A stretch of DNA of 64,000 nucleotides from Gaiella sp. (GCF_039915195.1 NZ_JBDSNT010000105.1:5252-69251); one strand, 5' to 3'; positions 2 through 37,646 are shown, counted from the stretch's first letter. Notes: generated by a model from the sequence alone, not told the origin. Made by a program: numbers and translations.

Positions 2-733
2 GACATCGCAGCGATCCTCACGGCGATCGAGCCGCGCGATGTGCTCTTCATCGACGAGATCCACCGGCTCAACCGTGCGGCCGAGGAGATCCTGTATCCG
101 GCGCTCGAGGACTTTCGTCTCGACATCATCTTCGGACAGGGGGCGGCGGCCCGAACGCTCACGATCGATCTGCCGCCGTTCACGCTCGTCGGTGCTACAA
201 CCCGGTCCGGCCTGCTGACGACGCCGTTGCGCGACCGCTTTGGGATGACGTTCCGGCTCGGCTACTACGAGTCGGGCCAACTGGGGACGATAGTCCGTCG
301 CTCGGCATCGATTCTCGCCGTCGAGATCGAGGACGACGCCGCCGACGAGATCGCGGGGCGTTCACGCGGAACGCCGCGGATCGCGAACCGCATCCTGCGG
401 CGTGTCCGCGACGTCGCCGAGGTGCGCCACGCGGGGAAGATTACGAACGAGATCGCGCGTGAGGCGCTCGATCTCCTCGAAGTCGACGGGCTCGGCCTGG
501 AGCGTATCGACCGCGAGTTGCTCCGCTCGATCGCCGAGAAGTTCGACGGTGGCCCCGTCGGTCTCTCGACCCTCGCGGTCTCGCTCGGCGAGGAGCCAGA
601 CACGATCGAGGAGGTCTACGAGCCGTTTCTCCTGCAGCTCGGCTTCATCCAGCGCACGCCACGCGGGCGGACGATCACGGCGCTCGGTAGGGCGCACGTC
701 GGGGCCGTGCGCGTGGACGGGAGCCTCTTCTAG
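2..733 (+). CDS. ruvB: Holliday junction branch migration helicase RuvB (5'-partial)
   Basis: Frame open from base 2 ([23 protein letters not shown], Walker B). Contains [16 protein letters not shown] and RTPRGR motifs. Confidence 0.97.
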
Positions 734-1764: not shown

Positions 1765-1788
1765 GCCGTCCGGGCCGGGACCTATCGT
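1765..1788 (+). promoter_or_regulatory. GCCGTCCG-N10-TATCGT promoter motif (recJ)
   Basis: Read directly. -10 hexamer is 6 nt before ATG 1795. Confidence 0.55.
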
Positions 1789-1794
1789 GGTTCC

Positions 1795-3672
1795 ATGATG
1801 GCGAGTTGGAAGCTCGAGTCGGTTTCGTACCCTGATGTCAGGGCGTTGACCGACGCACTAGGGGTCTCCGAGACGGTCGCGAGCGTGCTCGTGCGGCGCG
1901 GACTCGCAGATCCTGTGGCCGCCAAGGCGTTTCTCGATCCCGAGGGGATCTCGCACGATCCACTCCTCCTCGGAGACATGACCGCTGGTGTTGCGCGGCT
2001 TCGGCTGGCGGTCGAACGGGGTGAGCGGATCTGCGTTCACGGCGACTACGACGTCGACGGGATCTGTGCCACTGCCCTCGCGATGCTGATCCTACGGGAG
2101 CTCGGCGCCGACGTCTCGTGGCACCTCCCGAGCCGGTTCGAGGAAGGCTACGGCGTCTCCGTGGCGACCGTCGCACGCCTTGCCGAGGAGGGCGTGAAGC
2201 TCATCCTCACCGTCGACTGCGGGATCACTGCAGTCGCCGAAGTCGCGGAGGCACGGCGCCTCGGCGTCGACGTGATCATCACCGATCATCACCGTCCCGG
2301 CGAGACGCTCCCGGACTGCCCCATCGTGGCCACGCGCCCGTCCGCGTACCCGTTTCCCGAGCTCTGCGGCACCGGGGTCGTCGCCAAACTGGGCCAGGCC
2401 CTCCTTGGCCCGGAGCACCCGGTACTCGCCCGCCACGCCGACCTGATCGCGCTCGCGACGATCGCCGATGTGGTTCCCCTCGTCGACGAGAACCGAGCGC
2501 TCACATCGGCAGGCCTGCGAGGCCTGTCTCGCACGCAGAAGCCGGGGCTCGCGGCGTTGATGCGCGTCGCGGGCGTCGACCCGGCGACGATCGACGCTAC
2601 TGCGGTTGCCTTCCGACTCGCGCCGCGCATCAACGCTGCGGGGCGCCTCGGGCGGCCCGACGTGGCACTGCACCTCGTTCTCACCGGTGATGCTCGCGAG
2701 GCCGACCTCCTGGCCAACGAGCTCGAAAGCCTCAACCGCGACCGCCAGGCGGTCGAGGACAGAATTCTTCGTGAAGCGGTCGCGACCGTCGAAGCCTGGT
2801 CGCCCGATCGACGCAGCCGTCGTGCATACGTCGTCTGGGGGGAGGGATGGCACGAGGGAGTGATCGGGATCGTTGCCTCACGGCTCGTGGAGCGCTTCGG
2901 CCGTCCGGTCGTGCTCATCGCGGGCGAGGGCGACCGCTGGAAAGGCTCCGGCCGCTCCGTGCCGACGTTCGACCTTCACGCCGGGCTCGCCGCCTGCGCT
3001 GCCCACCTCGAACGGTTCGGTGGCCATCGCGCGGCAGCAGGGCTATCGATAGCACCGGATCAGCTCGAGCCGTTCGCCCGAGCATTCTCCGCGTATGCCG
3101 ACGGAGTACTTGGTGACGAGGATCTCGTGTCGGAGACGCGCATCGACGCGATCGTGCCGGCGCTCGCACTCACACTCGACCTCGCGCGGGAGATCGAACA
3201 GCTCGCGCCGTTCGGGCTCGGGAATCCCGACGTGACATTGCTCGTGGCCGACTGCGAGGCGGTCGGCGCGTCAACCGTCGGCGACGGGAAGCACCTACGC
3301 TTCAGGGTGCGCCAGCAGGGGCGGGACGCGGGAAGCGCCATCGCCTTCGGACTCGGCGGCCAGCTCGACCGGATGCGGGTCGGCTCGCACTTCGACGTCG
3401 CATTCCGGCTGAAGCAGAACCGCTGGAACGGAACGGTCGCGCCGCAGCTCGTCGTGCGGCGGATCTTCGACACAGACGAAGCGTACGGCGAGCTCCGCAA
3501 CTGGCTCGCCGGGCTCTGGCGTGCCGGCGACACGGCCTGGACGCCCGAGGCCCGGCGGATCTTCTCGGAGCTGTCGATCGAGGGCGGCGGCAAGCGGCAG
3601 CTGCTCGAATCTCCCACCTTCAGGGAGCTCCTCGCCCATGGTGCGCCGCTCAGTCTTCCTCAGGCCGCCTGA
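1795..3672 (+). CDS. recJ: ssDNA-specific exonuclease RecJ
   Basis: HGDYDVDG, TVDCG, DHH, PRINAAGR, GSGRS and FGGH motifs. Start set at ATG 1795 (TATCGT-N6-ATG). Confidence 0.95.
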   Translation: MMASWKLESVSYPDVRALTDALGVSETVASVLVRRGLADPVAAKAFLDPEGISHDPLLLGDMTAGVARLRLAVERGERICVHGDYDVDGICATALAMLILRELGADVSWHLPSRFEEGYGVSVATVARLAEEGVKLILTVDCGITAVAEVAEARRLGVDVIITDHHRPGETLPDCPIVATRPSAYPFPELCGTGVVAKLGQALLGPEHPVLARHADLIALATIADVVPLVDENRALTSAGLRGLSRTQKPGLAALMRVAGVDPATIDATAVAFRLAPRINAAGRLGRPDVALHLVLTGDAREADLLANELESLNRDRQAVEDRILREAVATVEAWSPDRRSRRAYVVWGEGWHEGVIGIVASRLVERFGRPVVLIAGEGDRWKGSGRSVPTFDLHAGLAACAAHLERFGGHRAAAGLSIAPDQLEPFARAFSAYADGVLGDEDLVSETRIDAIVPALALTLDLAREIEQLAPFGLGNPDVTLLVADCEAVGASTVGDGKHLRFRVRQQGRDAGSAIAFGLGGQLDRMRVGSHFDVAFRLKQNRWNGTVAPQLVVRRIFDTDEAYGELRNWLAGLWRAGDTAWTPEARRIFSELSIEGGGKRQLLESPTFRELLAHGAPLSLPQAA

Positions 3673-3677
3673 GCGCC

Positions 3678-3788
3678 TCAGCGCCCCGCATGGAGGCCGC
3701 GGCGCGGCGAGCGCGCTATCGACCGCTCGATCTCCGCGAGGAGCCGAAGCACGCGGCGGCGTTCGACGTATCTTCGGAGGAAGCCCAT
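3678..3788 (-). CDS. Possible 36-aa Arg-rich small protein
   Basis: MGFLRRYVERRRVLRLLAEIERSIARSPRRGLHAGR fills the recJ-relA gap and looks helical and amphipathic. No clear RBS or -10. Confidence 0.35.
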   Translation of the reverse strand: MGFLRRYVERRRVLRLLAEIERSIARSPRRGLHAGR

Positions 3789-3875
3789 GGCTTCAGTTCT
3801 TTCGGCAGATCTACCCTGGCTCCTGTCACCCGAATGGGGCCGGGACGGTCCCGATCCCCTCAGTAGACTGAGACC

Positions 3876-6082
<2,207 letters not shown>

Positions 6083-6083
<1 letters not shown>

Positions 6084-6360
6084 GGCGAGGTGTATCCGCG
6101 GTGGAAGAGCGTACCGCGGATTCACCTCCCCCTATCCCGGCCGATGCTTTCTGCCACGCTTCGCGTGGATCCTGAAGGGGGCCGCCCGCGACCCACTTTG
6201 AGAGAGTTGCTTGGCGACTGCTTTGGGCGCTCGAAGGGGGAGGTATATCCGCTGTGGAAGAGCGTACCGCGGATTCACCTCCCCCTATCCCGGCCGATGC
6301 TTTCTGCCACGCTTCGCGTGGATCCTGAAGGGGGCCGCCCCGCCTGGACGCTTCAGCCTG
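6083..6360 (+). repeat. Tandem duplication of a 105-bp structured element (6083-6187 and 6236-6340) plus conserved flank
   Basis: Two near-identical copies at offset 153. Each has a long hairpin (GAGGTGTATCCGCGGT...ACCGCGGATTCACCTC) and a CCACGC-TTC-GCGTGG mini-hairpin. Confidence 0.95.
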
Positions 6361-6499
6361 GCGGCGACGCCGGGCCGCGGCGAGTTTGGATCGGCGATAC
6401 ACCCGCTGTGTCGCAGTGGAGCCTGCGCAGCGCCCCTCGAACGAGGGATTGCGTCACCCTTCCGGGTGCCTACAACTGTGACAAGGGGAGAGGGGTCAT

Positions 6500-6538
6500 G
6501 TTGCTGCGGCCGTCCGGTTCGCCGGACGGCCGCGCAAC
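6500..6538. terminator. Strong hairpin between convergent genes, probable terminator
   Basis: GTTGC-T-GCGGCCGTCCGG-TTCG-CCGGACGGCCGC-GCAAC: perfect 12-bp stem plus a 5-bp extension, 25 nt past the thioesterase stop. No U-tract. Confidence 0.65.
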
Positions 6539-6563
6539 GGACATCGGAACGGAGCCCGGTCGC

Positions 6564-7022
6564 TCACTCTGCGACGTCGCCGAGCTCGAAGCTCCGCACC
6601 GTCTCGCGAACCGTTTCCGGGATCGGAAGTGGGGCACGGGCGACGGGATCGATCAGCACGAGCGTCTGGCTTCCCGTCACCATCAACTCGTCGTCGGTCA
6701 AGCTGACGGCCGCCACCTCATACGTGACGCTGGTTCGGCCAAGCCTGCTGACACGGACGAAGCACTCGAGAAGATCGTCGAACCGTGCCGGCGCGTGATA
6801 CTCGACGTTCGACGCGCGCATGACGTACTCCGCGCCGTCGACGCCGAGCGAGCCGAGATGCCGGTGGTATTCCGTGCGCGCGTGGTCGAAGTAGGGGAGG
6901 TAGCGGCCGTAGTAGACAACTCCTTGCGCATCCGTGTCCGAGAACCAGACCCTCGTCAGCGCCGAGTACTTGAACGGTGGCCGCCGGTCGGTGATGCGGC
7001 CGAGCTCGAGGGGGTCGCTCAC
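6564..7022 (-). CDS. Acyl-CoA thioesterase, YbgC/4-HBA-CoA hotdog family
   Basis: DTDAQGVVYYGRYLPYFDHAR motif. Confidence 0.9.
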   Translation of the reverse strand: MSDPLELGRITDRRPPFKYSALTRVWFSDTDAQGVVYYGRYLPYFDHARTEYHRHLGSLGVDGAEYVMRASNVEYHAPARFDDLLECFVRVSRLGRTSVTYEVAAVSLTDDELMVTGSQTLVLIDPVARAPLPIPETVRETVRSFELGDVAE

Positions 7023-7025
7023 GCG

Positions 7026-8372
7026 TCAGCCCTGGATCAGGGCGACGAGCTCGTCTCGACGCGCAGCCATCTCACTCTCGGTGAGCGCTTCGAGGTTGAG
7101 GCGGAGTAGTGGCTCGGTGTTCGAGGGGCGCACGTTGAAGTGCCACGTGTCGAAGTCGACCGAGACTCCATCGAGATGCGAGACGCGCCCGCCTTCAGCC
7201 GAATAGCGCTCCTCGATCTCCTGGAGCTTCAGTTGCACATCCGACACCGGCGTGTTGATCTCACCCGTAATGAAGTATCGCTCGCGGAACGGGCGCAGGA
7301 TCTCGGAGAGCTTCGCGCCCCGTGCCGAGATGAGCTCGAGCATGAGGAGAAACGGGACGACCCCTGTGTCGGCCTGGGTGAAGTCGCGGAAGTAGTAGTG
7401 CGCCGAGACCTCGCCGGCGAAGATCGCATGCTCCTCGCGCATCCGGTGCTTGATGTACGCGTGCCCGACGCGGTTCACGAGCGCATTCCCGCCCGCCGCC
7501 TCGATTGTTCGCGGAACGGCCCAGCTCGCCCGCACGTCGTAGAGAACCGTTCCACCGGGGCTCTTCCCGAGCATTACCTCGGCTAGAAGCGCAGTGACGA
7601 AGTCACCGGGGACGAACTCACCGGAGTCGTCGACGAAGAAGCACCGATCTGCGTCACCGTCGTACGCGACACCGAGATCGGCACCCTCCTCGCGTGTCTT
7701 CGCAACGATGAACTCCCGATTCGCCTCGAGCAGCGGGTTCGGCTCGTGATTCGGGAACGTCCCGTCCGGGTCGAAGTAGCACCGGACGACCTCGACCTGG
7801 GGGAGGCGCTCGAGAACGGGCGGCAGCATCGTGCCGGCCATTCCGTTCGCGGCGTCGACGACGATGCGCAGGGGGCTAATCGCCTCGAGGTCGACGAACG
7901 ACAGCACCTTCTCCACGAAGCCCGGCCACACGTCGAGTGGCGTGATCTCGCCGCGCCGCGCTACTGGCCCAAAGCCCGCCTGAGCGGCCGCAAGGATGTC
8001 CATCAGGCCGGAGTCGCCCCCGACCGGAAGGGCTCCACCTCGCACGATCTTCATCCCCGTGTACTGCTTGGGGTTGTGAGACGCCGTGACGCAGATCCCT
8101 CCGTCGAGGCCCAGCTCGCCGACGGCGTAATAGACCATCTCCGTTCCGACCATCCCGAGGTCGCGGACGTCTGCGCCGCCGTCTGCCGCGCCCTCCATCA
8201 CCGCGGCGGTCATGGTCGGGGCCGACACCCTCATGTCGCGGCCGACGGCGATCGCCGCGGGCTGAAAGTGCTCGACGTAGGCTCGCCCGATCGCGTATGC
8301 GCCTTTCTCGTCGAGCTCGGAGCCGTACAGACCACGCACGTCGTATGCCTTGAAGGCGCTCGGGTTCAACAC
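7026..8372 (-). CDS. Phosphomannomutase/phosphoglucomutase
   Basis: FKAYDVRG, TASHNP, DGDADR, GEVSAH and RPSNTEP motifs. Start moved to GTG 8372 (TACGAT-N7). Confidence 0.95.
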   Translation of the reverse strand: MLNPSAFKAYDVRGLYGSELDEKGAYAIGRAYVEHFQPAAIAVGRDMRVSAPTMTAAVMEGAADGGADVRDLGMVGTEMVYYAVGELGLDGGICVTASHNPKQYTGMKIVRGGALPVGGDSGLMDILAAAQAGFGPVARRGEITPLDVWPGFVEKVLSFVDLEAISPLRIVVDAANGMAGTMLPPVLERLPQVEVVRCYFDPDGTFPNHEPNPLLEANREFIVAKTREEGADLGVAYDGDADRCFFVDDSGEFVPGDFVTALLAEVMLGKSPGGTVLYDVRASWAVPRTIEAAGGNALVNRVGHAYIKHRMREEHAIFAGEVSAHYYFRDFTQADTGVVPFLLMLELISARGAKLSEILRPFRERYFITGEINTPVSDVQLKLQEIEERYSAEGGRVSHLDGVSVDFDTWHFNVRPSNTEPLLRLNLEALTESEMAARRDELVALIQG

Positions 8373-8443
8373 GTAGCCCATCGTATTGAAGGTTCGCCGG
8401 TCCGGGAGCGGGGGCTGGCGAGATCGAGCGGAACGCCGCGAAA

Positions 8444-9268
8444 TCAGCGAGCGACGAGTCCCGCGGCGTGGTCTGGAACGTACGTCATCGTCGATCGATC
8501 AGGGCGGACATAGCCCGTGTCGACCTGTCGCACCGGCAACTCACGCATCGGCGCGTCAATCGGTTCATACGGAACCTTCGAGAGCAGGTGTGCGATGCAG
8601 TTGAGCCGCGCGTTCCTCTTCACATCCGCCTCGACGACCCACCACGGCGAGATGTCCGTGTCGGTGTGGACGAACATCTCGTCCTTCGCGCGTGAGAAGT
8701 CGACGAAGCGCTTCCGTGACTCGATATCGACGTCGCTCAGCTTCCAGCGGCGGGTCGGATCTGTCATGCGGGCCTGGAAGCGCCGCTCCTGTTCCTCGTC
8801 GCTGACCGAGAACCAATACTTGACCAAGGTGATCCCGTCCTCGATCAGCATGTTCTCGAACGGGGGGCACTGGCGCAGGAACCGGTGATGCTCCTCGGGC
8901 GAACAGAAGCCCATGACCTTCTCGACGCCCGCGCGGTTGTACCAGCTTCGGTCGAAGAGGACGATCTCGCCGGCCGCAGGTAGGTGCGCGATGTACCGCT
9001 GGAAGTACCACTGCGCTCGCTCGCGCTCGGATGGCGCCTGCAGCGCGGCGATCCGGCAGAAGCGGGGATTGAGGCGCTCCTGGATCCGCTTGATGGCGCC
9101 GCCCTTCCCGGCCGCGTCGCGGCCCTCGAAGATCACAGCGACCCTCGTACCCGAGGCACGGATCCAGTCGAGCATGAGAGCGAGCTCGATCTGGAGCCGT
9201 TGCAGCTCCTGCTCGTACTGCGCCCTCGTGATCCTGGGTGCTGCTTTCTCGCGATTGGGACGCGCCAT
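8444..9268 (-). CDS. ppk2: Polyphosphate kinase 2
   Basis: FEGRDAAGKGG Walker A and FDRSWYNRAGVE motifs. Confidence 0.95.
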   Translation of the reverse strand: MARPNREKAAPRITRAQYEQELQRLQIELALMLDWIRASGTRVAVIFEGRDAAGKGGAIKRIQERLNPRFCRIAALQAPSERERAQWYFQRYIAHLPAAGEIVLFDRSWYNRAGVEKVMGFCSPEEHHRFLRQCPPFENMLIEDGITLVKYWFSVSDEEQERRFQARMTDPTRRWKLSDVDIESRKRFVDFSRAKDEMFVHTDTDISPWWVVEADVKRNARLNCIAHLLSKVPYEPIDAPMRELPVRQVDTGYVRPDRSTMTYVPDHAAGLVAR

Positions 9269-9319
9269 CGCCTGCGAGGCTACAGCAGTTGTTCCCCTTG
9301 AAGGTCGATCCGTGGCTCT

Positions 9320-9940
9320 CTACGCTTTCTCGAACCGCTCGATGCAATCGCCGATCGCCGCCAGGAGCTCGCGATGCCCACGAAGATCCTGGCCTTGGTC
9401 GGCGAGGATGTGCGTCTCCAGCCCGTGGTAGACGATCGCGACCATGTTGGCGAGCGAATGTGCCGGAAGCGGGAGGGGGCGACCGTGCTCGCGCGCCCAG
9501 GTGTCGATCGTCTCCTCGATCAATGCGACCCAGCCGTCGACCGATACGCGCCAGCGCTCGGCGAGCTCCGGGTCGCAGAGGCCGGCCGCCCAGAGCTCCC
9601 ACAACATCCGCACGTAGCCCGATGCGAGATCCTCCTCGAAGTACGCTGCTGCGGCTCGCCAACGGTCAGCGAGAGTGCCGTCGCCGGAGAAGAGCTCACG
9701 CTGCCGCTCGAGGAGACGGTCGTTCTCCCGCTCGAGCACGGCAGTGAGGAGTCCGGCGCGCGACCCGAAGTGATAGTGGACGAGCGACAGGGGAACGTCG
9801 GCGGCTCCTGCGACAGCCCTCGTCGAGGCGGCCGCGTACCCGACGCGCCCTATCAGGTTGGCTGCGGCATCGAGAATCGACTCACGCTTGTCGACTCCCC
9901 GGGCGCGGCGCCCGTCGGTTCGCCCCTCCGTATTTGACAC
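9320..9940 (-). CDS. TetR/AcrR family regulator
   Basis: N-terminal HTH (ILDAAANL...STRAVA...LSLVHYHFGS). Confidence 0.92.
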   Translation of the reverse strand: MSNTEGRTDGRRARGVDKRESILDAAANLIGRVGYAAASTRAVAGAADVPLSLVHYHFGSRAGLLTAVLERENDRLLERQRELFSGDGTLADRWRAAAAYFEEDLASGYVRMLWELWAAGLCDPELAERWRVSVDGWVALIEETIDTWAREHGRPLPLPAHSLANMVAIVYHGLETHILADQGQDLRGHRELLAAIGDCIERFEKA

Positions 9941-9943
9941 GGC

Positions 9944-9977
9944 CCGACTGTATCAGTTATAAAGTCGGTCGACCGAC
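9944..9977. promoter_or_regulatory. Probable TetR operator region
   Basis: Perfect 14-bp palindrome GTCGGTCGACCGAC (9964-9977), plus ACTG-TAT-CAGT (9947-9957) overlapping the tetR -10 (TACAGT on the minus strand). Lies between tetR and its divergent gene. Confidence 0.65.
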
Positions 9978-10038
9978 CAATTGACTCGGGAAGCGATGAA
10001 CGTGCGACAATCGACGATGCTGGTGGAGGAGGGACGGG

Positions 10039-12192
10039 ATGAGCGTGCTGGGTGCCGGAGCGACAGGAATGAACGTGCCTGATCTCTCGCGCGCCGTCCA
10101 GCCGCTCACGTCAGGCGTCGTCGACGTGGACGGCGTCGAGATCGCCTGGGAGGTCTTCGGTGAGGGAGAGCACACGCTGCTCTTCATGCCGCCGTGGGCG
10201 ATCGTTCACTCACGCTTCTGGAAGGCGCAGATCGCGACGATGGCGCGCTCCTACCGGGTCGTCAGCCACGACGGGCGCGGAAACGGGCGATCCGGCCGTC
10301 CAGCGACGAGCGCGGAGTACGTCGATCGCGTCAAGGTCGGCGACTCCGTCGCAGTCCTCGATGCGACCGAAACCGAAGAGTGCCTCGCAGTCGTCCACTG
10401 CGGCTCGGCAGGGACGGGACTCCGGCTTGCTGCCGAGTATCCCCACCGTGTCCGTGCCATGGTCTCGATCGCGCCGTCGTTGCCGCTGTCCCCGCCGCTT
10501 CCCGAGCGCGTCGGATTCCCGTTGCGCGCACGGGCCGAGCGATACGAGGACTGGGGCAAGGCGAACGTTCACTACTGGGCGAGCGAGGGAGGCTACGACG
10601 ACTATCTCCAGTTCTTCTTCGGTCACTGCTTCCCGGAGCCCCACTCCACAAAGCAGATCGACGACTGCGTCGCGTGGGGGCATGAGATCGGGCCCGAGAC
10701 GCTTGCGACGCTGATGGATGCGGCGGGGACGACGCGAGACGAGGCACTCGAACTGCTCGGCCGTATCACATGCCCTGTCCTGTTCGTCCAGGGCACCGAG
10801 GACGAGATCACCCCACCCGATCGCGGTGCCGCGATGCACGCCGCGCTCCCCGGCTCGGAGCTCGCCGTCTTCGACGGTTGTGGGCACGGCCTCAATGCAC
10901 GCGACCCGATCCGCTTCAACCTGTTGCTTCGCGACTACGCCGACCGGGTCTTCGGCGCACGAACGAGCTTCTCGTTCCGTCGGGCACTGACCCGTTCACC
11001 GCGCGCGCTCCTCGTCAGTTCCCCCATCGGCCTCGGCCATGCGTGGCGCGACGTCGCGATAGCCGAAGAACTTCGAAGGCTTCGCCCCGGGCTCGAGATC
11101 GAGTGGCTTGCGCAGGACCCCGTGACGCAGGTGCTCGAAGCGTGTGGCGAGACGATCCATCCCGCCTCGTCGATGCTTGCCGGCGAATCCGCGCACATCA
11201 CGGCGACATCGTCGGGGCATGAGCTTCCGGTCTTTCAGGCCTGGCGCGAGATGGACGAGATCCTCGTCGCGAACTTCATGCTCTTCCATGACGTGGCGCG
11301 CGACGGCCGCTACGACCTCTGGATCGGAGACGAGGCGTGGGAGGTCGACTACTTCCTCCACGAGAACCCCGAGCTCAAGTCGGCGACGTATTGCTTCCTC
11401 ACCGACTTCGTGGGGTGGTTGCCGATGCCGGAGGGCGGCGCGCGGGAGGTCGAGCTGACGGCGGACTACAACGCCGAGATGATCCGCCAGATCGAGCGCT
11501 TTCCGGGAGTTCGCGATCTGGCGCTCTTCGTCGGCGACCCCGACGACATCGTGCCGGAGCGGTTCGGCGCCGGGCTGCCGGAGATCCGGTCATGGACGGA
11601 GGAGCATTTCGACTTCACCGGGTACGTGCTCCCGGCGCACCAGGCGACCCTCCCGCCGAGGGACGTTCTGCGAGCCGAGTTCGAGTGGACGCCCGAGGAG
11701 ACCGTCCTCGTCGTCGCGGTCGGCGGCTCGGGCGTCGGCTCGGATCTGCTCGCGAGAGCGATCGAGGCACACGTTCTGCTCACATCGCGGGTCGACCGAC
11801 TCCGCACGATCCTCATCGCGGGCCCACGCATCGACGGGTCGGCGTTCGAAGTCCCGAGCGGTGTCGAGCTGCTTCCCTACGTCCATGCGGCGGGGCGCAT
11901 GCTCGCTGCGTCGGACGTGGCCCTCGTTCAGGGAGGTCTCACGACGACGATGGAGCTCGTTGCTGCCGGTCGGCCGTTCGTCAGCGTCCCTCTGCGCCGT
12001 CACTTCGAGCAGAACGGCCACGTCGCCTATCGGCTCCGGCGCTACGGCCACGCGAGCCAGGTCGAAGCCGACGCGTCTCCGGCGCACCTCGCCGATGCGC
12101 TTGCCTCGGCCCTCCGAACCCCGACGTCCTACCTGCCGGTTCGCACCGACGGCGCGCGGCGCGCGGCGGAGGCGATAGCCGCCCTCCTCTAG
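10039..12192 (+). CDS. Alpha/beta hydrolase fused to GT-B glycosyltransferase (GT28-C-like)
   Basis: N-terminal half has DGRGNGRS, GTEDEI and GCGH. C-terminal half has SPIGLGH and QGGLTTTME...EQ. Confidence 0.85.
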   Translation: MSVLGAGATGMNVPDLSRAVQPLTSGVVDVDGVEIAWEVFGEGEHTLLFMPPWAIVHSRFWKAQIATMARSYRVVSHDGRGNGRSGRPATSAEYVDRVKVGDSVAVLDATETEECLAVVHCGSAGTGLRLAAEYPHRVRAMVSIAPSLPLSPPLPERVGFPLRARAERYEDWGKANVHYWASEGGYDDYLQFFFGHCFPEPHSTKQIDDCVAWGHEIGPETLATLMDAAGTTRDEALELLGRITCPVLFVQGTEDEITPPDRGAAMHAALPGSELAVFDGCGHGLNARDPIRFNLLLRDYADRVFGARTSFSFRRALTRSPRALLVSSPIGLGHAWRDVAIAEELRRLRPGLEIEWLAQDPVTQVLEACGETIHPASSMLAGESAHITATSSGHELPVFQAWREMDEILVANFMLFHDVARDGRYDLWIGDEAWEVDYFLHENPELKSATYCFLTDFVGWLPMPEGGAREVELTADYNAEMIRQIERFPGVRDLALFVGDPDDIVPERFGAGLPEIRSWTEEHFDFTGYVLPAHQATLPPRDVLRAEFEWTPEETVLVVAVGGSGVGSDLLARAIEAHVLLTSRVDRLRTILIAGPRIDGSAFEVPSGVELLPYVHAAGRMLAASDVALVQGGLTTTMELVAAGRPFVSVPLRRHFEQNGHVAYRLRRYGHASQVEADASPAHLADALASALRTPTSYLPVRTDGARRAAEAIAALL

Positions 12193-13004
12193 GACGTCAG
12201 GACAGCGCGAATCGCCTGGCTCGACGCCTCGTCGGGTGATTCCGAGATCACTGTCGCCGGACGATCGAAGCGCGCGAGTGCCTCCCGTAGCGGGTCGGCG
12301 CGGAGCGTGCCCTCTCCGTAGGGCAGATGGTGCTTCTCGTTGCGGTTTGCGTACGCGATGTCGGAGAAGTGGATGTGGAATGGTGTCCCCGGCGCGAGGA
12401 CGTCGTCCACAGCCGCGAGTGCCTCGACGAAGAGGCTCGGCTCGAGGTAGGCGCCGTCGCTCGTCGCGTGCAGGTGCGCGAAGTCGAGCACCGGCCGCAC
12501 CCAGCCCGTGTGGCGCGAGATCTCCACGACATCGTCGAGCGAGCCAAGATCCCGAACGCGGCCCATCACCTCGATGCCGAATGGGACGGCCCGGTTCTTC
12601 CCTTCCAGGCGGGCGCGCAGCGTACCGAGCTGTTCGACGACCGAAGCGATCGCGTCCTCGCGCGTCCGACCAAGGAGGAACCCCGGGTGGAAGACAACGA
12701 CCTCGGCACCGCATGCTGCCGCGATCCCGGCGCTGCGGTCGAGCGCACCGACCGCGGAGGAGAACTTGCGGCCCGACGCCTCGAGATGGCCCATGAAGCC
12801 AAAGAGCGGTGCATGGACGGAAAGCGCGATATCGGCGTCCCGCGCCGCCTCGCCCAGCTGCGCGGCCCACGGATAGTCCATCCAGAACCCGCCCTCGAAG
12901 TCGATCTCGCAGGCGTCGTAGCCCAGCGCGAGCAGCGTCTCGACGGCCCGGTGGGGGTCGTCGCGGACGGGGATACCAGGCAGACCTACGCGAATTCGTG
13001 CCAT
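12189..13004 (-). CDS. Endonuclease IV-like TIM-barrel protein (AP endonuclease family 2)
   Basis: SVHAP, HPG, E-VMG, DFAHLHA, HIHFSD and EKHH metal-ligand pattern. Start ATG 13004. Confidence 0.8.
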   Translation of the reverse strand: MARIRVGLPGIPVRDDPHRAVETLLALGYDACEIDFEGGFWMDYPWAAQLGEAARDADIALSVHAPLFGFMGHLEASGRKFSSAVGALDRSAGIAAACGAEVVVFHPGFLLGRTREDAIASVVEQLGTLRARLEGKNRAVPFGIEVMGRVRDLGSLDDVVEISRHTGWVRPVLDFAHLHATSDGAYLEPSLFVEALAAVDDVLAPGTPFHIHFSDIAYANRNEKHHLPYGEGTLRADPLREALARFDRPATVISESPDEASSQAIRAVLTS

Positions 13005-13021
13005 TTGCGGGAACTCTATGT

Positions 13022-13043
13022 CGTCCGACGTGCTTCGTACTCT
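13022..13043 (+). promoter_or_regulatory. CGTCCG-N10-TACTCT promoter motif (78-aa gene)
   Basis: Read directly. -10 hexamer is 6 nt before ATG 13050. Confidence 0.55.
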
Positions 13044-13049
13044 TGAGCC

Positions 13050-13286
13050 ATGGATCAGCCCACGCGGATCGACCTTCTCGAGCTCGACATCGACCTTCGC
13101 CTCGCCGACCTCTGGCGCGAGGCCGCCGACGTGACTGAGTGGAATCTCGAGGTCGTTTCGGCGTTCATGCGCGCCTCCTACGGGAAGGGCTACTGCGACG
13201 CCTTCACGGAGGACTCGCCCGGTGCGCTGTGCCACGACCACGGGTACGAGATCCCGGGTCGACGGCAGTCCGTCCGCGCCGCCTAG
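13050..13286 (+). CDS. Hypothetical protein, 78 aa
   Basis: TACTCT-N6-ATG. Helical, with conserved-looking FMRASYGKGYCDA and CHDH. Confidence 0.8.
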   Translation: MDQPTRIDLLELDIDLRLADLWREAADVTEWNLEVVSAFMRASYGKGYCDAFTEDSPGALCHDHGYEIPGRRQSVRAA

Positions 13287-13310
13287 TTTCATTAACCCTA
13301 GTTTCATTAA
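13282..13310. repeat. 14-bp AT-rich direct repeat CCTAGTTTCATTAA x2 (period 15)
   Basis: Exact copies at 13282-13295 and 13297-13310. Confidence 0.9.
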
Positions 13311-13356
13311 GAGGTTGGTCAGGTCGCGTGGCCGCCGCCGCGGGTATCCTCAGGGG

Positions 13357-13764
13357 GTGGCCAGGAAGCGCTCTCCGGCGCGGCTCGTTATCGCCCTCTC
13401 GATAGCGGCGGTGCTCGCCGTGTTCCTTCTCTACACCTCGATCGCTGGTGGTGGTACGCCGTCGTTCACGCCGAGCGAGTTGGCCGCCCAGACCGGCCCC
13501 GTCTCCCTGGTGGGCCAGGTCGTCGGCAAGCCGACGGGCGATGCGAACGAGGAGGGCCTGCGGTTTCGGCTCCGTGATGTGAAGGATCCGTCGAGTCCAA
13601 CCGTGCTTGTCATCTACAAGGGAAGCGTGCCCGATCTCTTCGCACCGGGCCGGGATCTCGTCGTCGAAGGCGAGCTGCAAAACGGCAGGTTCGTTGCGAC
13701 GCCGGGGACGATGGTGACCAAGTGCCCGTCGAAGTACACGGCGATCAAACCGTCTGATCAGTAG
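13357..13764 (+). CDS. ccmE: Cytochrome c maturation heme chaperone CcmE, CxxxY variant
   Basis: N-terminal TM helix, then V-Y-K-G-S-V-P-D-L-F, VEG and C-terminal TKCPSKY. Start GTG 13357 (TATCCT-N6). Confidence 0.9.
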   Translation: MARKRSPARLVIALSIAAVLAVFLLYTSIAGGGTPSFTPSELAAQTGPVSLVGQVVGKPTGDANEEGLRFRLRDVKDPSSPTVLVIYKGSVPDLFAPGRDLVVEGELQNGRFVATPGTMVTKCPSKYTAIKPSDQ

Positions 13765-13777
13765 GGGGGACCTCTAG

Positions 13778-15784
13778 ATGGCTGATCTCGGTCGGGCAGC
13801 GCTCCTCATCACGCTCGGCCTCTGCCTGTACGCGTGCGTCGTCGGGACCGTGGCCGCGATCACGCGTCGGCGCAGGCTTGCGATGTCGGCCCGCAACGCC
13901 CTCATCGCCTCCTTCGGCTCGACGCTGATTGCTGCCGGCATCCTCGTGGCCGGATTCGTTCGCAACGACTATTCGCTCGTGTACGTCGCCGAGCACTCGA
14001 GCCGCTCGCTGGGTGGGATCTACAAGGTCTCCGCGCTCTGGGGCGGCCAGGAGGGCTCGCTCCTGCTCTGGCTCCTCATTCTTACGGGCTACGCCGCGCT
14101 CGCCGTCTGGGTCAACCGCAACCGCACGCGTGATCTCGTCGTCTGGGTGACGCCGGTACTCGGAGGCATCTCCGTCGGGTTCGCGTTTCTTCTCGTCCTC
14201 GTAGCGACGCCGTTCGCGACGCAGGTCGCGCCGGTCGACGGCGCCGGACTGAACCCGAGTCTCCAGAATCCGTACATGATGTCCCACCCGCCGTTCCTCT
14301 ACCTCGGGTACGTCGGCCTTGCTGTGCCGTTCGCCTTCGCGATGGGAGCGCTGCTCTCCGGGCGCACCGACGAGCGCTGGATCGTCGCGACGCGACGCTG
14401 GACGCTGATCGCTTGGACCGCGCTCGGGATTGGCCAGCTTCTCGGCTCGCACTGGGCCTATCTCGAGGTCGGCTGGGGTGGCTTCTACGCCTGGGATCCG
14501 GTCGAGAACGCCGCCCTGATGCCGTTTCTCGCAGCCACCGCGTTCCTCCACTCCGTGATGATCCAGGAGAAGCGCGGAATGCTGAAAGTCTGGAACATGA
14601 TTCTCGTCTCGCTTGCCTTCTGCCTCTCGATCTTCGGCACGTTCCTGACGCGGTCGGGGGTCGTGAACTCGATCCACTCGTTCTCGCAGAGCTCGATCGG
14701 CGCCTGGTTTCTCGCGTTCATCGTGATCGCCGTCGTCTTCTCGACGGTGATGATCATCTGGCGGCTGCCGCTCCTGCGGTCGACGACGAGGCTCGAGTCG
14801 CTCATCTCTCGCGAGGCGGTCTTTCTCTACAACAACCTGCTCCTCGTCGCGCTCTGCCTGACCATTCTCTGGGGCGTTGCCTGGCCGATCCTTTCCGAAG
14901 CGGTGCGGGGGGACTCCGTCGTTGTCGGCCCACCGTACTTCAACTTCTTCCTTCGTATCTTCGGGCTCCCGCTGCTCCTGCTGATGGGCGTCGGCCCGTT
15001 GATCGCATGGCGGCGAGCTTCGCTGCGTGGCCTCGGCCGGACGTTCCTCTGGCCCGCCTCGGTCGCTGTCGCGACCGGCCTCGTGCTGCTGCTCCTCGGG
15101 GCCGGGTCGTCGACTCCAGGGCTGATCGCCTACACGTTCTCGGCCTTTGTTCTTGCAGCGATAGGGCTCGAGTTCGTGCGGGGAACCAAGGCGCGTCGAG
15201 CGCTCGCGAGCGAGTCTTGGCCCGTGGCATTCGGCTCCCTGGTCGGTCGCAACCGTCGCCGCTACGGGGGATACATCGTCCACGTCGCAATCGTCCTCTT
15301 CGCGATCGGTGTCGCCGGAGCGAGCGCGTACGACTCGGTCGTCGAAGGCCGCCTGGCAAAGGGGGAGGCGCTCACGGTGTCCGGATACACGGTGCGGTAT
15401 GTCGGGCTCAGCGAGCGACAGACCGATCATGCGACCGAGGTGCGGGCGAAGCTGGCGGTCAGCAAGGGCGGCGAGAGCCTCGGTTCCCTCGAAGCCGGTA
15501 AGAACTCGTACAAGATCGCCGGTCCCGATCCACAGGTGTCGTCGGAGGTCGGTGTCCGCACCGACTATCTCACAGGCGAGGATCTCTTCGTCATCCCCGG
15601 GACGATCTACAGCGACGGCAGCGTCTACTTCAGAATCTTCGTCAAGCCGCTCGTCAACCTCCTCTGGCTCTCAGGGCTCATCTTCTTCCTCGGGACGATC
15701 ATCGCGCTCTGGCCCGATGCGCGCGAGCAGCGGCGACTTGCCGTTCGCTACGAGGAGGCCGGCAGCCCCGTCCGTGGCCGGTGA
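13778..15784 (+). CDS. ccmF: Cytochrome c-type biogenesis heme lyase CcmF
   Basis: WGGQEGSLLLW, GLNPSLQNP...HPP, WGGFYAWDPVEN (WWD motif) and RSG...SIHSF. Confidence 0.96.
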   Translation: MADLGRAALLITLGLCLYACVVGTVAAITRRRRLAMSARNALIASFGSTLIAAGILVAGFVRNDYSLVYVAEHSSRSLGGIYKVSALWGGQEGSLLLWLLILTGYAALAVWVNRNRTRDLVVWVTPVLGGISVGFAFLLVLVATPFATQVAPVDGAGLNPSLQNPYMMSHPPFLYLGYVGLAVPFAFAMGALLSGRTDERWIVATRRWTLIAWTALGIGQLLGSHWAYLEVGWGGFYAWDPVENAALMPFLAATAFLHSVMIQEKRGMLKVWNMILVSLAFCLSIFGTFLTRSGVVNSIHSFSQSSIGAWFLAFIVIAVVFSTVMIIWRLPLLRSTTRLESLISREAVFLYNNLLLVALCLTILWGVAWPILSEAVRGDSVVVGPPYFNFFLRIFGLPLLLLMGVGPLIAWRRASLRGLGRTFLWPASVAVATGLVLLLLGAGSSTPGLIAYTFSAFVLAAIGLEFVRGTKARRALASESWPVAFGSLVGRNRRRYGGYIVHVAIVLFAIGVAGASAYDSVVEGRLAKGEALTVSGYTVRYVGLSERQTDHATEVRAKLAVSKGGESLGSLEAGKNSYKIAGPDPQVSSEVGVRTDYLTGEDLFVIPGTIYSDGSVYFRIFVKPLVNLLWLSGLIFFLGTIIALWPDAREQRRLAVRYEEAGSPVRGR

Positions 15785-16083
15785 GTATCGCTATCGCCCT
15801 CAGCGCGATCCTCGGCGTCGTATGTGTCGTTCTCGTGGCCTTGCCGTACCTCCGCGAGCCCGAGCCCGTTTCCGACGAGCTCGAGGAGATGACACCGGAA
15901 CGTCAGCGACGGCTTGCACTCGCAGAGGAGCGCGATCGCGCCCTTTCGGCATTGAAGGAGATCGAGGCCGACCATCGCGCCGGGCGGGTCAGCGACGAGG
16001 ACTACCGCGCGTCGATCGGTGAGCTACGGCGAGAGGCGGCGAGTGCCCTCCGAGCGCTCGATGGGGAGAATGGGAAGGTCTAG
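15781..16083 (+). CDS. CcmI N-terminal-like small membrane protein
   Basis: TM helix followed by LKEIEADHRAGRVSDEDY. GTGA overlap with ccmF. Confidence 0.7.
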   Translation: MSIAIALSAILGVVCVVLVALPYLREPEPVSDELEEMTPERQRRLALAEERDRALSALKEIEADHRAGRVSDEDYRASIGELRREAASALRALDGENGKV

Positions 16084-16108
16084 TACCCGACGGCGCGAAT
16101 GCGTCCGT

Positions 16109-17305
16109 ATGGTCCGCCTGTCGGTTGTCCTTGGTGTGCTCGCGGCCGTGATGCTGCTCGCGGGAACCGCAACGGGTGATCCAGGTGCCGAGAAGTCGGG
16201 AGTTGACGCCCGTCTCGGAGAGGCTCGCGAGAAGGCAGAGCAGGCGGCCAGGTCGGCGAAGCTTCTCACGACCGAGGTGAGTAGGCTCAGTCAGGCTGCA
16301 CGCTCGGCGGAGGCGGCCCTCGCGGGTGAGCAGGCTCGGGTTACGGCGCTCGAGGCGTCTCTCGCAGCCGAGCAGGCTCGCCTCACGCAACTGGGACGCG
16401 AAGTAGATGCACAGAACGCGCGACTCGCAGTCCTCGGCCAGCAATACCGGGCGGCACTTCGTGTTCTCGAGAAGCATGTCCGCGCGATCTATCTGTCGGA
16501 CTCCCCCGATCTCATCTCGTTCGCCGTCGGAGCCACGTCGTTCGGCGAGCTCATCAACAACCTTGATCTTCTCGATCGAATCGGGAAGCAGGACCAGCGG
16601 ATCGCCGGAGCGTTCGACGCGGCCCGCATCGAGCTCGCACGGGCACGGGCATCGACGCTTCGCATGGAGCGCGAGGTCGCACGATCCGTATCGGTCATAG
16701 CAGCGCGAACCGCGGCTCAGCGCGAAGCACGCGATCTCGTTGCCTCGAGGCGGAGCGCGCTCGTGGCCGCCGAGAGCGACAAGGCGCAGGCGCTCGAGGG
16801 CGCACGTGAGGATCGCGCCACGTTCATCGCAGAGGCGGAGGCGCTCGCGGCCCAGAGTGCTGCGCTCGCGGCGAAGATCCAGGCCTTGCAGGCCGCCATT
16901 CCAGCGGCGACGTCACCCTCGCCCACGGCTCCTTCGTCAGGGGCAACGCTTGCCTGGCCCGTGTCGGGGCCTGTGACGAGCGGCTTCGGCCCTCGGTGGG
17001 GCAGGATGCACGAGGGCATCGACATCGCCGTCGGCACCGGGACACCGGTTGGCGCGGCCGCGGCAGGCACGGTGATCCACGCGGGGTGGCTCGGCGGCTA
17101 CGGGAATCTCGTGGTGATCGATCACGGAGGCGGACTTTCGACCGCGTACGCGCACAACTCGAGCCTCGTCGTCGGTGAGGGAACCGCCGTGAGCGCCGGG
17201 ACCGTGGTCGCCCTCTCGGGGAACACCGGCAACTCGTCCGGGCCCCACGTGCACTTCGAGGTCCGGATGAATGGCGCGGCGGTGGATCCGCTTCGGTATC
17301 TGTAG
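16109..17305 (+). CDS. M23 family peptidoglycan endopeptidase with coiled coil (EnvC/CwlO-like)
   Basis: Signal peptide, long coiled coil, then HEGID and HVHFE Zn motifs. Confidence 0.92.
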   Translation: MVRLSVVLGVLAAVMLLAGTATGDPGAEKSGVDARLGEAREKAEQAARSAKLLTTEVSRLSQAARSAEAALAGEQARVTALEASLAAEQARLTQLGREVDAQNARLAVLGQQYRAALRVLEKHVRAIYLSDSPDLISFAVGATSFGELINNLDLLDRIGKQDQRIAGAFDAARIELARARASTLRMEREVARSVSVIAARTAAQREARDLVASRRSALVAAESDKAQALEGAREDRATFIAEAEALAAQSAALAAKIQALQAAIPAATSPSPTAPSSGATLAWPVSGPVTSGFGPRWGRMHEGIDIAVGTGTPVGAAAAGTVIHAGWLGGYGNLVVIDHGGGLSTAYAHNSSLVVGEGTAVSAGTVVALSGNTGNSSGPHVHFEVRMNGAAVDPLRYL

Positions 17306-17329
17306 GCCGGACGCGCCTTGGTGTAGTTC

Positions 17330-17890
17330 CTAGGCGGCGTCGGTGGCCGCTGCCGGGAGCGCCTCTGTCGGGATGATGCGGAGATCGGGCAGCGCGCGCC
17401 ACTGCTCCTCGAGACCGAGGCCGTACCCCGCGAACAGCTCATCAGGGACTGTGAACCCGACGTACCGGAGGCCGATGTTCTCCACGAGCCTTCGGTACGG
17501 GCGATCGAGCAAGGTGACGGACGTGATGCTCGCCGGATCGCGCTCGGCGAGCGTCCGCGTGAGGAACGCGAGCGTGAGCCCCGTGTCGACGACATCCTCG
17601 ACGAGCAGGACATGCCTGCCGCCGATCGGAACGTCGAGATCCTTGAGCAGCCGGACGCCGCCGCGGCGGCCGTCAGAGTAGGCAGCCATCTCGATGACGT
17701 CGATCGTGTGCAGGATCGGCAGAGCCCGGGAGAGATCGGCGAGGAAGATCGTGCTCGACTTCAGGGGAGCCACGAGGAGTGGCTCCCGGCCCTCGAAGTC
17801 GGCAGCGATCTCCGCGCCGAGCTCTGCCACACGGGCAGCGATCTCGGCAGCCGAGAGGTAGACCTCGCCGATGAGGCGGTCGTGTCCTAT
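17330..17890 (-). CDS. hpt: Hypoxanthine phosphoribosyltransferase (start codon uncertain, possibly ATA 17890)
   Basis: PRPP-binding motif VLLVEDVVDTGLTL, plus LLDRP and FAGYGL. No ATG/GTG/TTG precedes the first conserved helix. Confidence 0.85.
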   Translation of the reverse strand: MGHDRLIGEVYLSAAEIAARVAELGAEIAADFEGREPLLVAPLKSSTIFLADLSRALPILHTIDVIEMAAYSDGRRGGVRLLKDLDVPIGGRHVLLVEDVVDTGLTLAFLTRTLAERDPASITSVTLLDRPYRRLVENIGLRYVGFTVPDELFAGYGLGLEEQWRALPDLRIIPTEALPAAATDAA

Positions 17891-18255
17891 GAGGCGAGCT
17901 TCAGCCGGTAGCGCTGGGCCAGGCGCTCGAGGTCGCGCCGGTAGAAGAGCTTGACGTTGACGTGCGGGTACTGCTCGCGCAGCTCCCGGAGCTTGCGATT
18001 CTTGCGCGTCACGAGGGACTGCTTCATCACGGTCACCTCGATGTACAGGTTCTCTTCCGGGAGGAAGAAGTCGGGCGTGAATGCGCGAGTAGTCCGCCCC
18101 TGGTCGTCTCGTTCGAGAACGAACGAGGTGGGCTCGTAGTCCCAGGGGATGCCATACCAGTCCAGGATCCTGGCGCACTCGAGCTCGATCCGGTTGGCAA
18201 ACCGCGGGGGCTCTGTTCCACGGTACGCCTGGAACCGGTGGGATTCCGACCGCAC
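17887..18255 (-). CDS. PD-(D/E)XK-like putative nuclease, 122 aa
   Basis: E...WDYEP...FTPDFFLP...YIEVT pattern. TACCGT-N6-GTG start. Confidence 0.75.
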   Translation of the reverse strand: MRSESHRFQAYRGTEPPRFANRIELECARILDWYGIPWDYEPTSFVLERDDQGRTTRAFTPDFFLPEENLYIEVTVMKQSLVTRKNRKLRELREQYPHVNVKLFYRRDLERLAQRYRLKLAS

Positions 18256-18261
18256 GAGTAG

Positions 18262-18285
18262 ACGGTACTCGCGCTCTCGGACGGC
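18262..18285 (-). promoter_or_regulatory. GCCGTCCG-N10-TACCGT promoter motif (nuclease-like gene)
   Basis: Read on the minus strand. -10 hexamer is 6 nt before GTG 18255. Confidence 0.55.
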
Positions 18286-22861: not shown

Positions 22862-23493
22862 TGCGAACCCGGCTCGATGTCCTCGTTCACGAGCTGCGGA
22901 GCCCGGTGGCCGCGCTCCTTGCGATCTCGGAGGTCTATGCCGACGCGGACTACTCGACGAGGCTCCGTCTCGTGGAGCTGGCCTGCACGGCGGGTGCGAG
23001 CCTCGAGCGCCTGCTCACCGACGTCACCGAAGCGACGCTCAGGCTGACGCGGCTCGATCTCGGTCGAATCGCTTTGGATGCGTGTGAAACTGCGACTCTC
23101 GGAGGTTCGTCGATCGTCGTGGCACCGGAGACCGACACCGCGCTCGCGGTTATCGGTGACGCGACCCGCCTGCGTCAGGCCCTCGACAACCTGATCGGGA
23201 ACGCGATCGGGCACTCACCGGCAGGGGCGACAGTCACCGTGGCGGCGACGCGTAGGGGAGGCTCATGTCTGGTCTCGGTCATCGACGAGGGCGAGGGAGT
23301 CTTGCCCGAAGACCTCGAGCGGATCTTCGAGCCGGGAGTGCGCGCCACGAGCGCCCGATCGGGGTCAGGTCTCGGCCTCGCTGTGGTACGAGAGATCGCC
23401 CGAGAGCACGGGGGAGAGGTCGAGGTGGAGTCGCGTCCCGACTGGGGCGCGACATTCAGGCTCGTGCTGCCGGCCGCTTCCGACGCGTCGTGA
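22861..23493 (+). CDS. Minimal histidine kinase without sensor domain
   Basis: HELRSP at residue 10, then N-box DNLIGNA, G1 DEGEG, F-box IFEP and G2 GSGLGL. Confidence 0.88.
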   Translation: MRTRLDVLVHELRSPVAALLAISEVYADADYSTRLRLVELACTAGASLERLLTDVTEATLRLTRLDLGRIALDACETATLGGSSIVVAPETDTALAVIGDATRLRQALDNLIGNAIGHSPAGATVTVAATRRGGSCLVSVIDEGEGVLPEDLERIFEPGVRATSARSGSGLGLAVVREIAREHGGEVEVESRPDWGATFRLVLPAASDAS

Positions 23494-37620: not shown

Positions 37621-37646
37621 GAGCACAAGGCTACTCTGGCCATCGG

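Follow-up and report, generated by a model that had tools for sequence, protein, structure and literature searches.

A YGTCCG-N10-TANNNT promoter class in Gaiella and its relatives as the probable Gaiellales version of the PafBC-dependent promoter

In this report, we analysed a stretch of 64,000 nucleotides (nt) of DNA from Gaiella sp. (GCF_039915195.1, NZ_JBDSNT010000105.1:5252-69251; hereafter the window), i.e. contig C8:5252-69251 of an assembly of 2.66 Mb (67% G+C, 153 contigs, 92% complete), and focused on a short promoter box placed 10 nt upstream of the -10 hexamer of recJ and of other genes. The original prediction had described this motif as CGTCCG-N10-TANNNT and had proposed that a fused PafBC protein encoded in the same window recognises it. 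Our results indicate that the element, YGTCCG(R)-N10-TANNNT, is probably the Gaiellales version of the PafBC-dependent promoter (RecA-NDp, -26 element) and would be read by this fused PafBC. PafBC/RecA-NDp sigma adaptation was already known, and the novelty appears to reside in the re-specified box of this lineage.

The proposal that the motif is a variant PafBC box is supported by its geometry, which matches that of the published box, tGTCgg(N10)tA(N3)T, located at -28 to -23 in promoters that have no -35 element and in which GTC is strictly conserved (PMC8635444). In the known system, one helix-turn-helix (HTH) domain, HTH-B, reads the box while HTH-C docks on region 4 of SigA (PMC8635444), and activation is triggered by single-stranded DNA (ssDNA) bound inside the WYL/WCX tunnel (PMC11804915). 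A phylum-wide occurrence of this pathway was already expected by those who described it (PMC8635444, PMC11804915).

The comparison set consisted of 30 relatives, of which 18 are congeneric and 12 belong to four further families of the order Gaiellales. A leaderless-type promoter was defined as TANNNT followed, after 5-9 nt, by an ATG or GTG starting a coding-like open reading frame (ORF), which gave 726 such promoters genome-wide. Gene calls were made with a crude home-made caller that mis-assigned some strands, and assignments were checked by eye and with family models. The residues of PafB were mapped by hand counting on the HMMER alignment, whose numbering is that of PMC8635444.

The promoters from which the analysis started, and the recJ gene, are the following:

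1767..1788, plus strand: candidate PafBC-type promoter of recJ, with CGTCCG at 1767-1772, a 10-nt spacer, the -10 hexamer TATCGT at 1783-1788 and the ATG 6 nt downstream.
1795..3672, plus strand: recJ, encoding the ssDNA-specific exonuclease (TIGR00644, E 1.2e-143, above the curated cut-off; DHH, DHHA1 and RecJ_OB domains).
13022..13043, plus strand: candidate PafBC-type promoter of a gene encoding 78 amino acids (aa), with CGTCCG at 13022-13027, N10, TACTCT and the ATG 6 nt downstream (13050).
18262..18283, minus strand: candidate PafBC-type promoter of a nuclease-like gene, with CGTCCG at 18283-18278, N10, TACCGT at 18267-18262 and a GTG at 18255.

All three sites announced for the window were thus found again where they had been placed. 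The recJ promoter, which carries GCCGTCCG at 1765-1772 (plus strand), reads gcCGTCCG-ggccgggacc-TATCGT-ggttcc-ATG, the ATG being at 1795; that of the nuclease-like gene, with GCCGTCCG at 18285-18278 (minus strand), reads gcCGTCCG-agagcgcgag-TACCGT-ctactc-GTG; and that of the 78-aa gene reads CGTCCG-acgtgcttcg-TACTCT-tgagcc-ATG. CGTCCG-N10-TANNNT has these 3 exact matches in the window where 0.36 were expected, and none of 100 shuffles reached 3. Among the 29 candidate leaderless promoters of the window, NNTCCG stands at N10 in only four, i.e. these three and a CATCCG site described below, in agreement with the claim that the other leaderless promoters lack the motif.

As the motif had been found post hoc in a small sample, and as TCCG-N10-TANNNT alone is not enriched in the window (4 observed versus 2.57 expected), an origin by chance, by post hoc selection or as copies of a dispersed repeat had to be considered. 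The genome-wide test removed this worry. Matches to CGTCCG-Nx-TANNNT, for x from 6 to 14, numbered 4, 3, 5, 6, 24, 7, 5, 4 and 5, i.e. 24 at N10 and 3-7 at each of the spacings N6-N9 and N11-N14. CGTCCG also showed the highest N10-specific excess among all 4096 hexamers, with TGTCCG (8 versus 1) and CTTCCG (8 versus 1.6) also among the top five. A k-mer analysis of the 726 leaderless-type promoters, made with no seed, returned TCCG at -14 (28 versus 5.6), CGTCC at -16 and CGTCCG at -16 (11 versus 1.06) as the most position-specific words. Box sites share neither flanks nor spacers and did not therefore arise by copying of a repeat. Together with the counts at orthologous loci of the 30 relatives, whose spacers and flanks diverge (see below), this genome-wide, spacing-specific excess already refutes the chance explanation, whose probability we regard as negligible.

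The box proved wider than the hexamer first proposed: CGTCCG is indeed the top hexamer, but what is conserved is the core TCCG within YGTCCG. Genome-wide, [CT]GTCCG was found 32 times at N10 (about 6 expected), C[TA]TCCG 14 times (3.3 expected; it precedes ruvB, udg, recQ and thyA) and NNTCCG 71 times (34 expected), and the excess at N10 was lost on any change inside TCCG. GTC occupies box positions 2-4 at the three window sites, yet C[TA]TCCG is enriched too, so that the invariant core is TCCG. Position 5 is C, where the PafBC box (tGTCgg; TGTCRgtg) would have a purine; the canonical mycobacterial TGTCGG has no occurrence at N10 in the genome, and NGTCGG is not enriched there (16 versus 13.8). 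The element is therefore YGTCCG, in which the TCCG core is strict and after which A or G often stands. Neither 22 regulon promoters nor the orthologue sets showed any information content over the 8 nt that precede the box, i.e. there is no -35 element. About 35-40 sites stand above background genome-wide.

Conservation of the box before recJ orthologues extends across the order. Within the genus and families f5 and f3, these orthologues have CGTCCG or TGTCCG at N10, with variable spacers; in the two most distant families, f2 and f4, 4 of the 7 loci show nATCCG at N10. Orthologues of the 78-aa gene have the box at N10 (as CGTCCG, TGTCCG or CATCCG) in all 30 genomes that possess the gene, out of 31 searched and over five families, and orthologues of the nuclease gene have it in 19 of 19 genomes of the genus, in families f5 and f3 and in one f2 genome (G019). 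When NNTCCG-Nx-TANNNT was counted in the fetched recJ, 78-aa and nuclease loci, 28, 34 and 29 matches, respectively, fell at N10, against 0-2 each at N7-9 and N11-13 (0-1 for recJ and 0-2 for the nuclease). In the orthologue alignments, spacers and flanks vary while the box, the A or G that follows it and the -10 hexamer are kept, a pattern that reads as a phylogenetic footprint.

At recA (C72:5258-6217, minus strand), the archetypal target, the promoter is CGTCCG-N11-TATCTA, with a LexA box, GAACATATGTTT, immediately upstream of CGTCCG; recA is thus an exception to the N10 rule. The closest metagenomic RecA relatives (86-88% identity; loci L171-L176) have CGTCCG-N11-TAnnnT before recA, and one metagenomic recA locus (75% identity) combines a box at N10 with a LexA box. 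The canonical TGTC[AG]N-N10-TAnnnT (TGTCGGTGG, TGTCAGTGG, TGTCACACC) was seen at about 35 of the 76 tabulated recA loci, all of these being more distant. The box variant thus follows lineage at this target. We also noticed a distinct subtype, TGTCACACC(CC)-N-TAnnnT, which recurs before recA in more distant actinobacterial-like contigs (L183, L184, L185, L187 and L192).

Genes located behind the boxes were then assigned with family models unless stated otherwise. CGTCCG precedes genes for RuvC, RecJ, RadA, RmuC, ScpA, a DUF222-HNH endonuclease, an NrtR-like Nudix/winged-helix protein, DnaB and SMC (the last recognised by eye from its N-terminal sequence), as well as the class II ribonucleotide reductase gene nrdJ, which has a 78-nt leader. 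Behind CATCCG stand the genes for RuvB and a family-4 uracil-DNA glycosylase (udg), and behind ACTCCG that for PcrA/UvrD. CTTCCG and GTTCCG each precede one RecQ-family helicase gene, two in all, CTTCCG additionally the thymidylate synthase gene (thyA) and GTTCCG that of RNase HII (rnhB); TGTCCG precedes lexA, and a LigD-like protein, recognised by eye, is encoded behind a CCTCCG site. Leaderless TCCG promoters number 28, and about half of them precede genes of DNA repair, replication or chromosome maintenance. At 18 of these 28 the -10 hexamer lies 6 nt from the start codon, which would imply leaderless mRNAs, a status taken here from promoter-start geometry.

The expected enrichment at repair genes was thus recovered for ruvC, ruvB, recJ, radA, rmuC, pcrA/uvrD, both recQ genes, udg, lexA and dnaB, and for recA at N11, but did not extend to uvrA (C51:3869), which has a LexA box and no PafBC-type box, to uvrB, whose CGTCCG is not 10 nt from any -10 hexamer, or to ssb, which was checked for a box, lies inside an operon and was not counted as a member. 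The description of a DNA-repair regulon holds for these genes and is too narrow for smc, scpA, nrdJ and thyA, with which the set reaches beyond repair.

The regulon had also been presented as LexA-independent. A separate LexA regulon, with CGAAC-N4-GTTCG boxes, is present in the genome; most box promoters (e.g. those of recJ, ruvC, radA, rmuC, recQ and smc) have no LexA box, but those of lexA, dnaB and recA do, so that independence from LexA applies to the majority of members only. At lexA (C147:1293; GAACACGTGTTC) and dnaB (C148:48032; GAACATATGTTC) the LexA box comes directly after the -10 hexamer, in addition to the PafBC-type box. Two adjacent LexA-type boxes were observed at C132:3150 and 3174.

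Since several members are housekeeping genes of chromosome maintenance or deoxynucleotide (dNTP) supply, the box could alternatively mark a constitutive or replication/cell-cycle-coupled class of DNA-metabolism promoters that damage does not induce. We hold this to be improbable: repair and recombination enzymes form the majority of the members, lexA, recA and dnaB pair the box with LexA boxes in the manner of the dual damage control known from mycobacteria, and the candidate regulator described below keeps all the WYL residues that bind ssDNA (PMC11804915).

Some further box-like sites were met during this survey. The 1199-aa and 614-aa ORFs located behind perfect boxes at C44:7910 (minus strand) and C87:12984 (minus strand) look like antisense artefacts and were not counted; both boxes have leaderless-type ATGs and may drive short unannotated genes or antisense RNAs. 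At C98:23395 (minus strand), a 972-aa SNF2/DUF3670 helicase is encoded behind CGTCCC-N10-TATCCT, in which the last base of the box is changed, and may be a weak member of the regulon. At C4:7614 (plus strand), GATCCG-N10-TACGAT stands 10 nt before the gene of a 183-aa protein with an N-terminus that looks SepF-like by eye, which hints at a link with cell division and may be due to chance.

The protein proposed to read the box is encoded by the following gene:

23456..25489, minus strand: fused PafBC-like regulator of 677 aa with two HTH-WYL-WCX modules (Pfam WYL twice, WCX and HTH_PafC in one chain).

Its N-terminal half (residues 6-321) aligns to Mycobacterium smegmatis PafB (7p5x_AY, E 2.5e-20; 9fnd_X, E about 2e-20), and the protein also matches the fused PafBC of Arthrobacter aurescens (6sj9, E 2.4e-14). 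Relative to M. smegmatis PafB, the backbone contacts K5, R8, S40 and Y76, together with E42, A43 and the base-reader R46 (R47 here), are kept, as are all WYL residues that bind ssDNA, i.e. R181, Y196, R204, R208, R211 and R214, which correspond to R183, Y198, R206, R210, R213 and R216. HTH-B carries changes of M47 to Arg (R48 here), one turn before R50, E49 to Tyr and K52 to Arg, besides the two losses of arginine discussed below. The HTH-B helix, SDEAFARRFYSDRAEL, shows the same 16 residues in each of the 75 Gaiellales homologues in which it was found, down to 73% overall identity. A tblastn search of the genome with this protein found no second PafBC-like gene. No box was seen in the sequence upstream of pafBC, which was inspected for autoregulation; this is expected if the PafBC level is constant, as it is in mycobacteria (PMC6789036).

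Several observations weigh against attributing the box to this protein. Base-reading R50, for which almost absolute conservation among actinobacteria has been reported (PMC8635444), is replaced by Ser (S51) and R56 by Thr in HTH-B; pafBC is not beside pafA in the window, where those scanned neighbouring frames that had a family match encode an aldehyde dehydrogenase, a QueG-like protein and an Na/H exchanger; and in an assembly that is not entirely complete a second WYL regulator may have been missed. Regarding the box itself, about half of the NNTCCG-N10-TANNNT matches are background, about one site in four (CTTCCG, CATCCG) does without the G of the GTC triplet, and some box promoters precede genes unrelated to DNA (pyruvate dehydrogenase E1, acyl carrier protein, a permease), where the boxes are probably background.

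Because of the changes at R50 and R56, the read-out of the box cannot equal the mycobacterial one. An altered recognition helix at the base-reading arginine nevertheless fits a variant box, and the loss of R50 could plausibly explain the relaxed G at position 2, with R48 and R47 perhaps reading the C-C-G step. The 23456-25489 protein would then work like PafBC with a changed read-out. As the architecture matches and only the box core and the helix differ, the same mechanism with co-evolved specificity is the most economical reading.

A different possibility is that the box does control repair genes and is read by another factor, e.g. a ClgR-like HTH protein, a missed activator or an alternative sigma factor, the fused PafBC having some other function. 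The HTH-B without R50 and R56 would be compatible with this, as would the lack of linkage of pafBC to the box genes and to pafA, and there is an earlier report of ClgR (ClpR-like) binding to the RecA-NDp/P1 motif of mycobacteria (Wang et al. 2011, cited by PMC5656591). Against it, a box ending 10 nt before a SigA-type TANNNT has the geometry of PafBC sigma adaptation (PMC8635444) and is too near the -10 hexamer to be the -35 element of any sigma factor. The targets overlap those of mycobacteria, i.e. recA, the RecQ protein, which is lower in a pafBC deletion (PMC5656591), dnaB, which is partly PafBC-dependent, and ruvC, which is induced RecA-independently (PMC8151990). Moreover, all Gaiellales homologues in which this helix could be located share it without any difference, the change of the box falls in that very lineage, and only one PafBC-like gene was found in the genome. 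In view of the geometry, the genes targeted, the pairing of box and LexA box at lexA, recA and dnaB and the single PafBC candidate, we judge a reader other than PafBC unlikely, and a promoter class uncoupled from damage less likely still.

If the fused PafBC is the reader, the following sequence of events can be proposed. The protein would be made constitutively, by homology to the mycobacterial one; DNA damage would generate ssDNA, which would bind in the WYL/WCX tunnel; and the activated PafBC would place itself between the promoter and region 4 of SigA, so that the box at -28 to -23 is read by its PafB-type HTH and the -10 hexamer by SigA (sigma adaptation). This would switch on some 35-40 transcription units, most of them leaderless. 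For recombination and repair, the predicted regulon would comprise recA, ruvC, ruvB, recJ, radA, rmuC, two recQ genes, pcrA/uvrD, udg, rnhB, the LigD-like gene and the genes of the HNH and endonuclease-I-like nucleases; its other members would be lexA, dnaB, smc and scpA (chromosome organisation), nrdJ and thyA (dNTP supply) and the 78-aa protein gene. Both the binding of the box by fused PafBC and DNA damage as the signal are here inferred by analogy with mycobacteria.

Two of the box genes found in the window encode uncharacterised proteins:

13050..13286, plus strand: conserved 78-aa protein with two predicted N-terminal helices and an invariant Cys/His tail (C49, C61, H64).
17887..18255, minus strand: candidate endonuclease-I-like (PD-(D/E)XK) nuclease of 122 aa, possibly junction- or structure-specific, followed by hpt.

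The 78-aa protein had no match in Pfam, NCBIfam, PHROG or PDB. It has 2336 homologues, and all names among the 120 listed are 'hypothetical protein'. Its AlphaFold2 (AF2) model has a predicted local distance difference test (pLDDT) value of 70, too weak for a fold search. Among the genes examined, it is the one most consistently linked to the box. Public calls for this protein (P0001, P0006, P0018 and others) often start at an upstream ATG and begin with 'MPSD...', which is the translated box (ATG-yCG-TCC-GAc; window 13008-13050). These starts are probably an annotation artefact of leaderless genes, a point of use for annotation, since many 78-aa database entries translate the promoter itself from the upstream ATG.

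For the 122-aa protein, several weak results agree, i.e. Pfam Phage_endo_I (E 1.7e-4, below cut-off), PHROG 9019 'Holliday junction resolvase' (E 2e-7) and, with the family profile against PDB, 3cae 'Endonuclease I' (E 0.0028). Its AF2 model has a pLDDT of 83; a Foldseek search gave no match at E <= 0.001, and its best matches were mostly PD-(D/E)XK nucleases, all weak (E >= 0.065). We therefore retain it as a candidate endonuclease-I-like, structure-specific nuclease. Many of its homologues are labelled 'hypoxanthine phosphoribosyltransferase' (HPRT) at JGI, which may reflect the neighbouring hpt in another frame (17330-18255, minus strand); the real HPRT domain begins at about residue 161 of this 337-aa frame.

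Three other features of the window and its border relate to the box:

37628..37649, minus strand: weaker variant box and promoter, with CATCCG at 37649-37644, N10, TAGCCT and the ATG at 37620.
37180-37620, minus strand: gene of 146 aa behind this CATCCG site, a possible regulon member.
2..733, plus strand: 3' part of ruvB (RuvB, TIGR00635, E 8.8e-134).

The five-out-of-six match CATCCG, reported earlier at the 37620 gene, is real; it lies on the minus strand and serves the 146-aa gene, whose product had no family match. For this reason its assignment as promoter of queA (37647-38585, plus strand) was rejected. Genome-wide, CATCCG has 6 occurrences at N10 (1.7 at other spacings), and ruvB and udg likewise stand behind it. 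The box promoters of ruvC (CGTCCG; contig C8 position 3826) and ruvB (CATCCG; contig C8 position 4949) fall shortly before the start of the window, and RuvC was identified by its family match (TIGR00228, E 8.9e-38).

Taken further, these data suggest that the whole order re-specified both the -26 element and its regulator. The replacement of R50 by Ser and the gain of an Arg at position 47 would have shifted recognition from GTC-purine to TCCG, with 35-40 promoters co-evolving; the regulon would have widened to smc, scpA, nrdJ and thyA; and its most faithfully conserved target would be the 78-aa Cys/His protein. We lean towards this fuller scenario, with only slightly better than even confidence.

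To our knowledge, mycobacteria are the only organisms in which PafBC and its sigma adaptation have been elucidated, the GTC triplet and R46/R50 being reported as nearly invariant throughout the actinobacteria. The Gaiellales (class Thermoleophilia), a deep-branching and almost uncultured order, have the same promoter architecture with another box core and another recognition helix, and would thus offer a natural specificity variant for probing the PafBC recognition code. The analysis also provides a predicted regulon map for abundant soil organisms, and names two conserved, uncharacterised candidates of the damage regulon, the 78-aa protein and the endonuclease-I-like nuclease. If the prediction is true, the 78-aa protein would join the core of the damage response of actinobacteria as a new component.

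When compared with known systems, the Gaiellales promoters resemble the mycobacterial PafBC/RecA-NDp/P1 promoters in having the box 10 nt before TANNNT and no -35 element, and the two boxes share the T-C centre and the terminal G. They differ in that the Gaiellales box is YGTCCG with a strict TCCG and C at position 5, whereas the mycobacterial one is tGTCgg with a strict GTC. As in mycobacteria, the predicted regulon centres on recA, ruv, recQ, dnaB, lexA and nucleases, with some LexA overlap; unlike the mycobacterial regulon, it includes smc, scpA, nrdJ, thyA and the 78-aa protein, gives prominence to recJ and leaves uvrA to LexA only. The regulator has the two HTH-WYL-WCX modules, the ssDNA-binding arginines and the box-free promoter of mycobacterial PafBC, but it is a single fused chain and is not beside pafA.

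As a single chain, it is like the fused PafBC of A. aurescens (PDB 6sj9; PMC6789036), and also those of Kocuria and Thermobifida, in which the PafB and PafC halves form one polypeptide. Overall similarity is low, and the helices differ: that of A. aurescens (...FGRMFERDK...) keeps both arginines and, like that of M. smegmatis, follows F-x-R-M-F-E-R-D-K, whereas the Gaiellales one reads ...FARRFYSDR....

Caulobacter crescentus DriD (PMC9186387, PMC13004042) is likewise an ssDNA-sensing WYL activator of LexA-independent damage genes. DriD, however, is a homodimer acting on a palindromic-type site upstream of promoters and not on a fixed -26 element, and only the relationship of the WYL domains is detectable. 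Finally, the LexA/SOS regulon (GAAC-N4-GTTC) is co-present in this genome and shares lexA, dnaB and recA with the box regulon, besides including uvrA. LexA, in contrast, is a repressor with a palindromic operator, and most box promoters described here have no LexA box.

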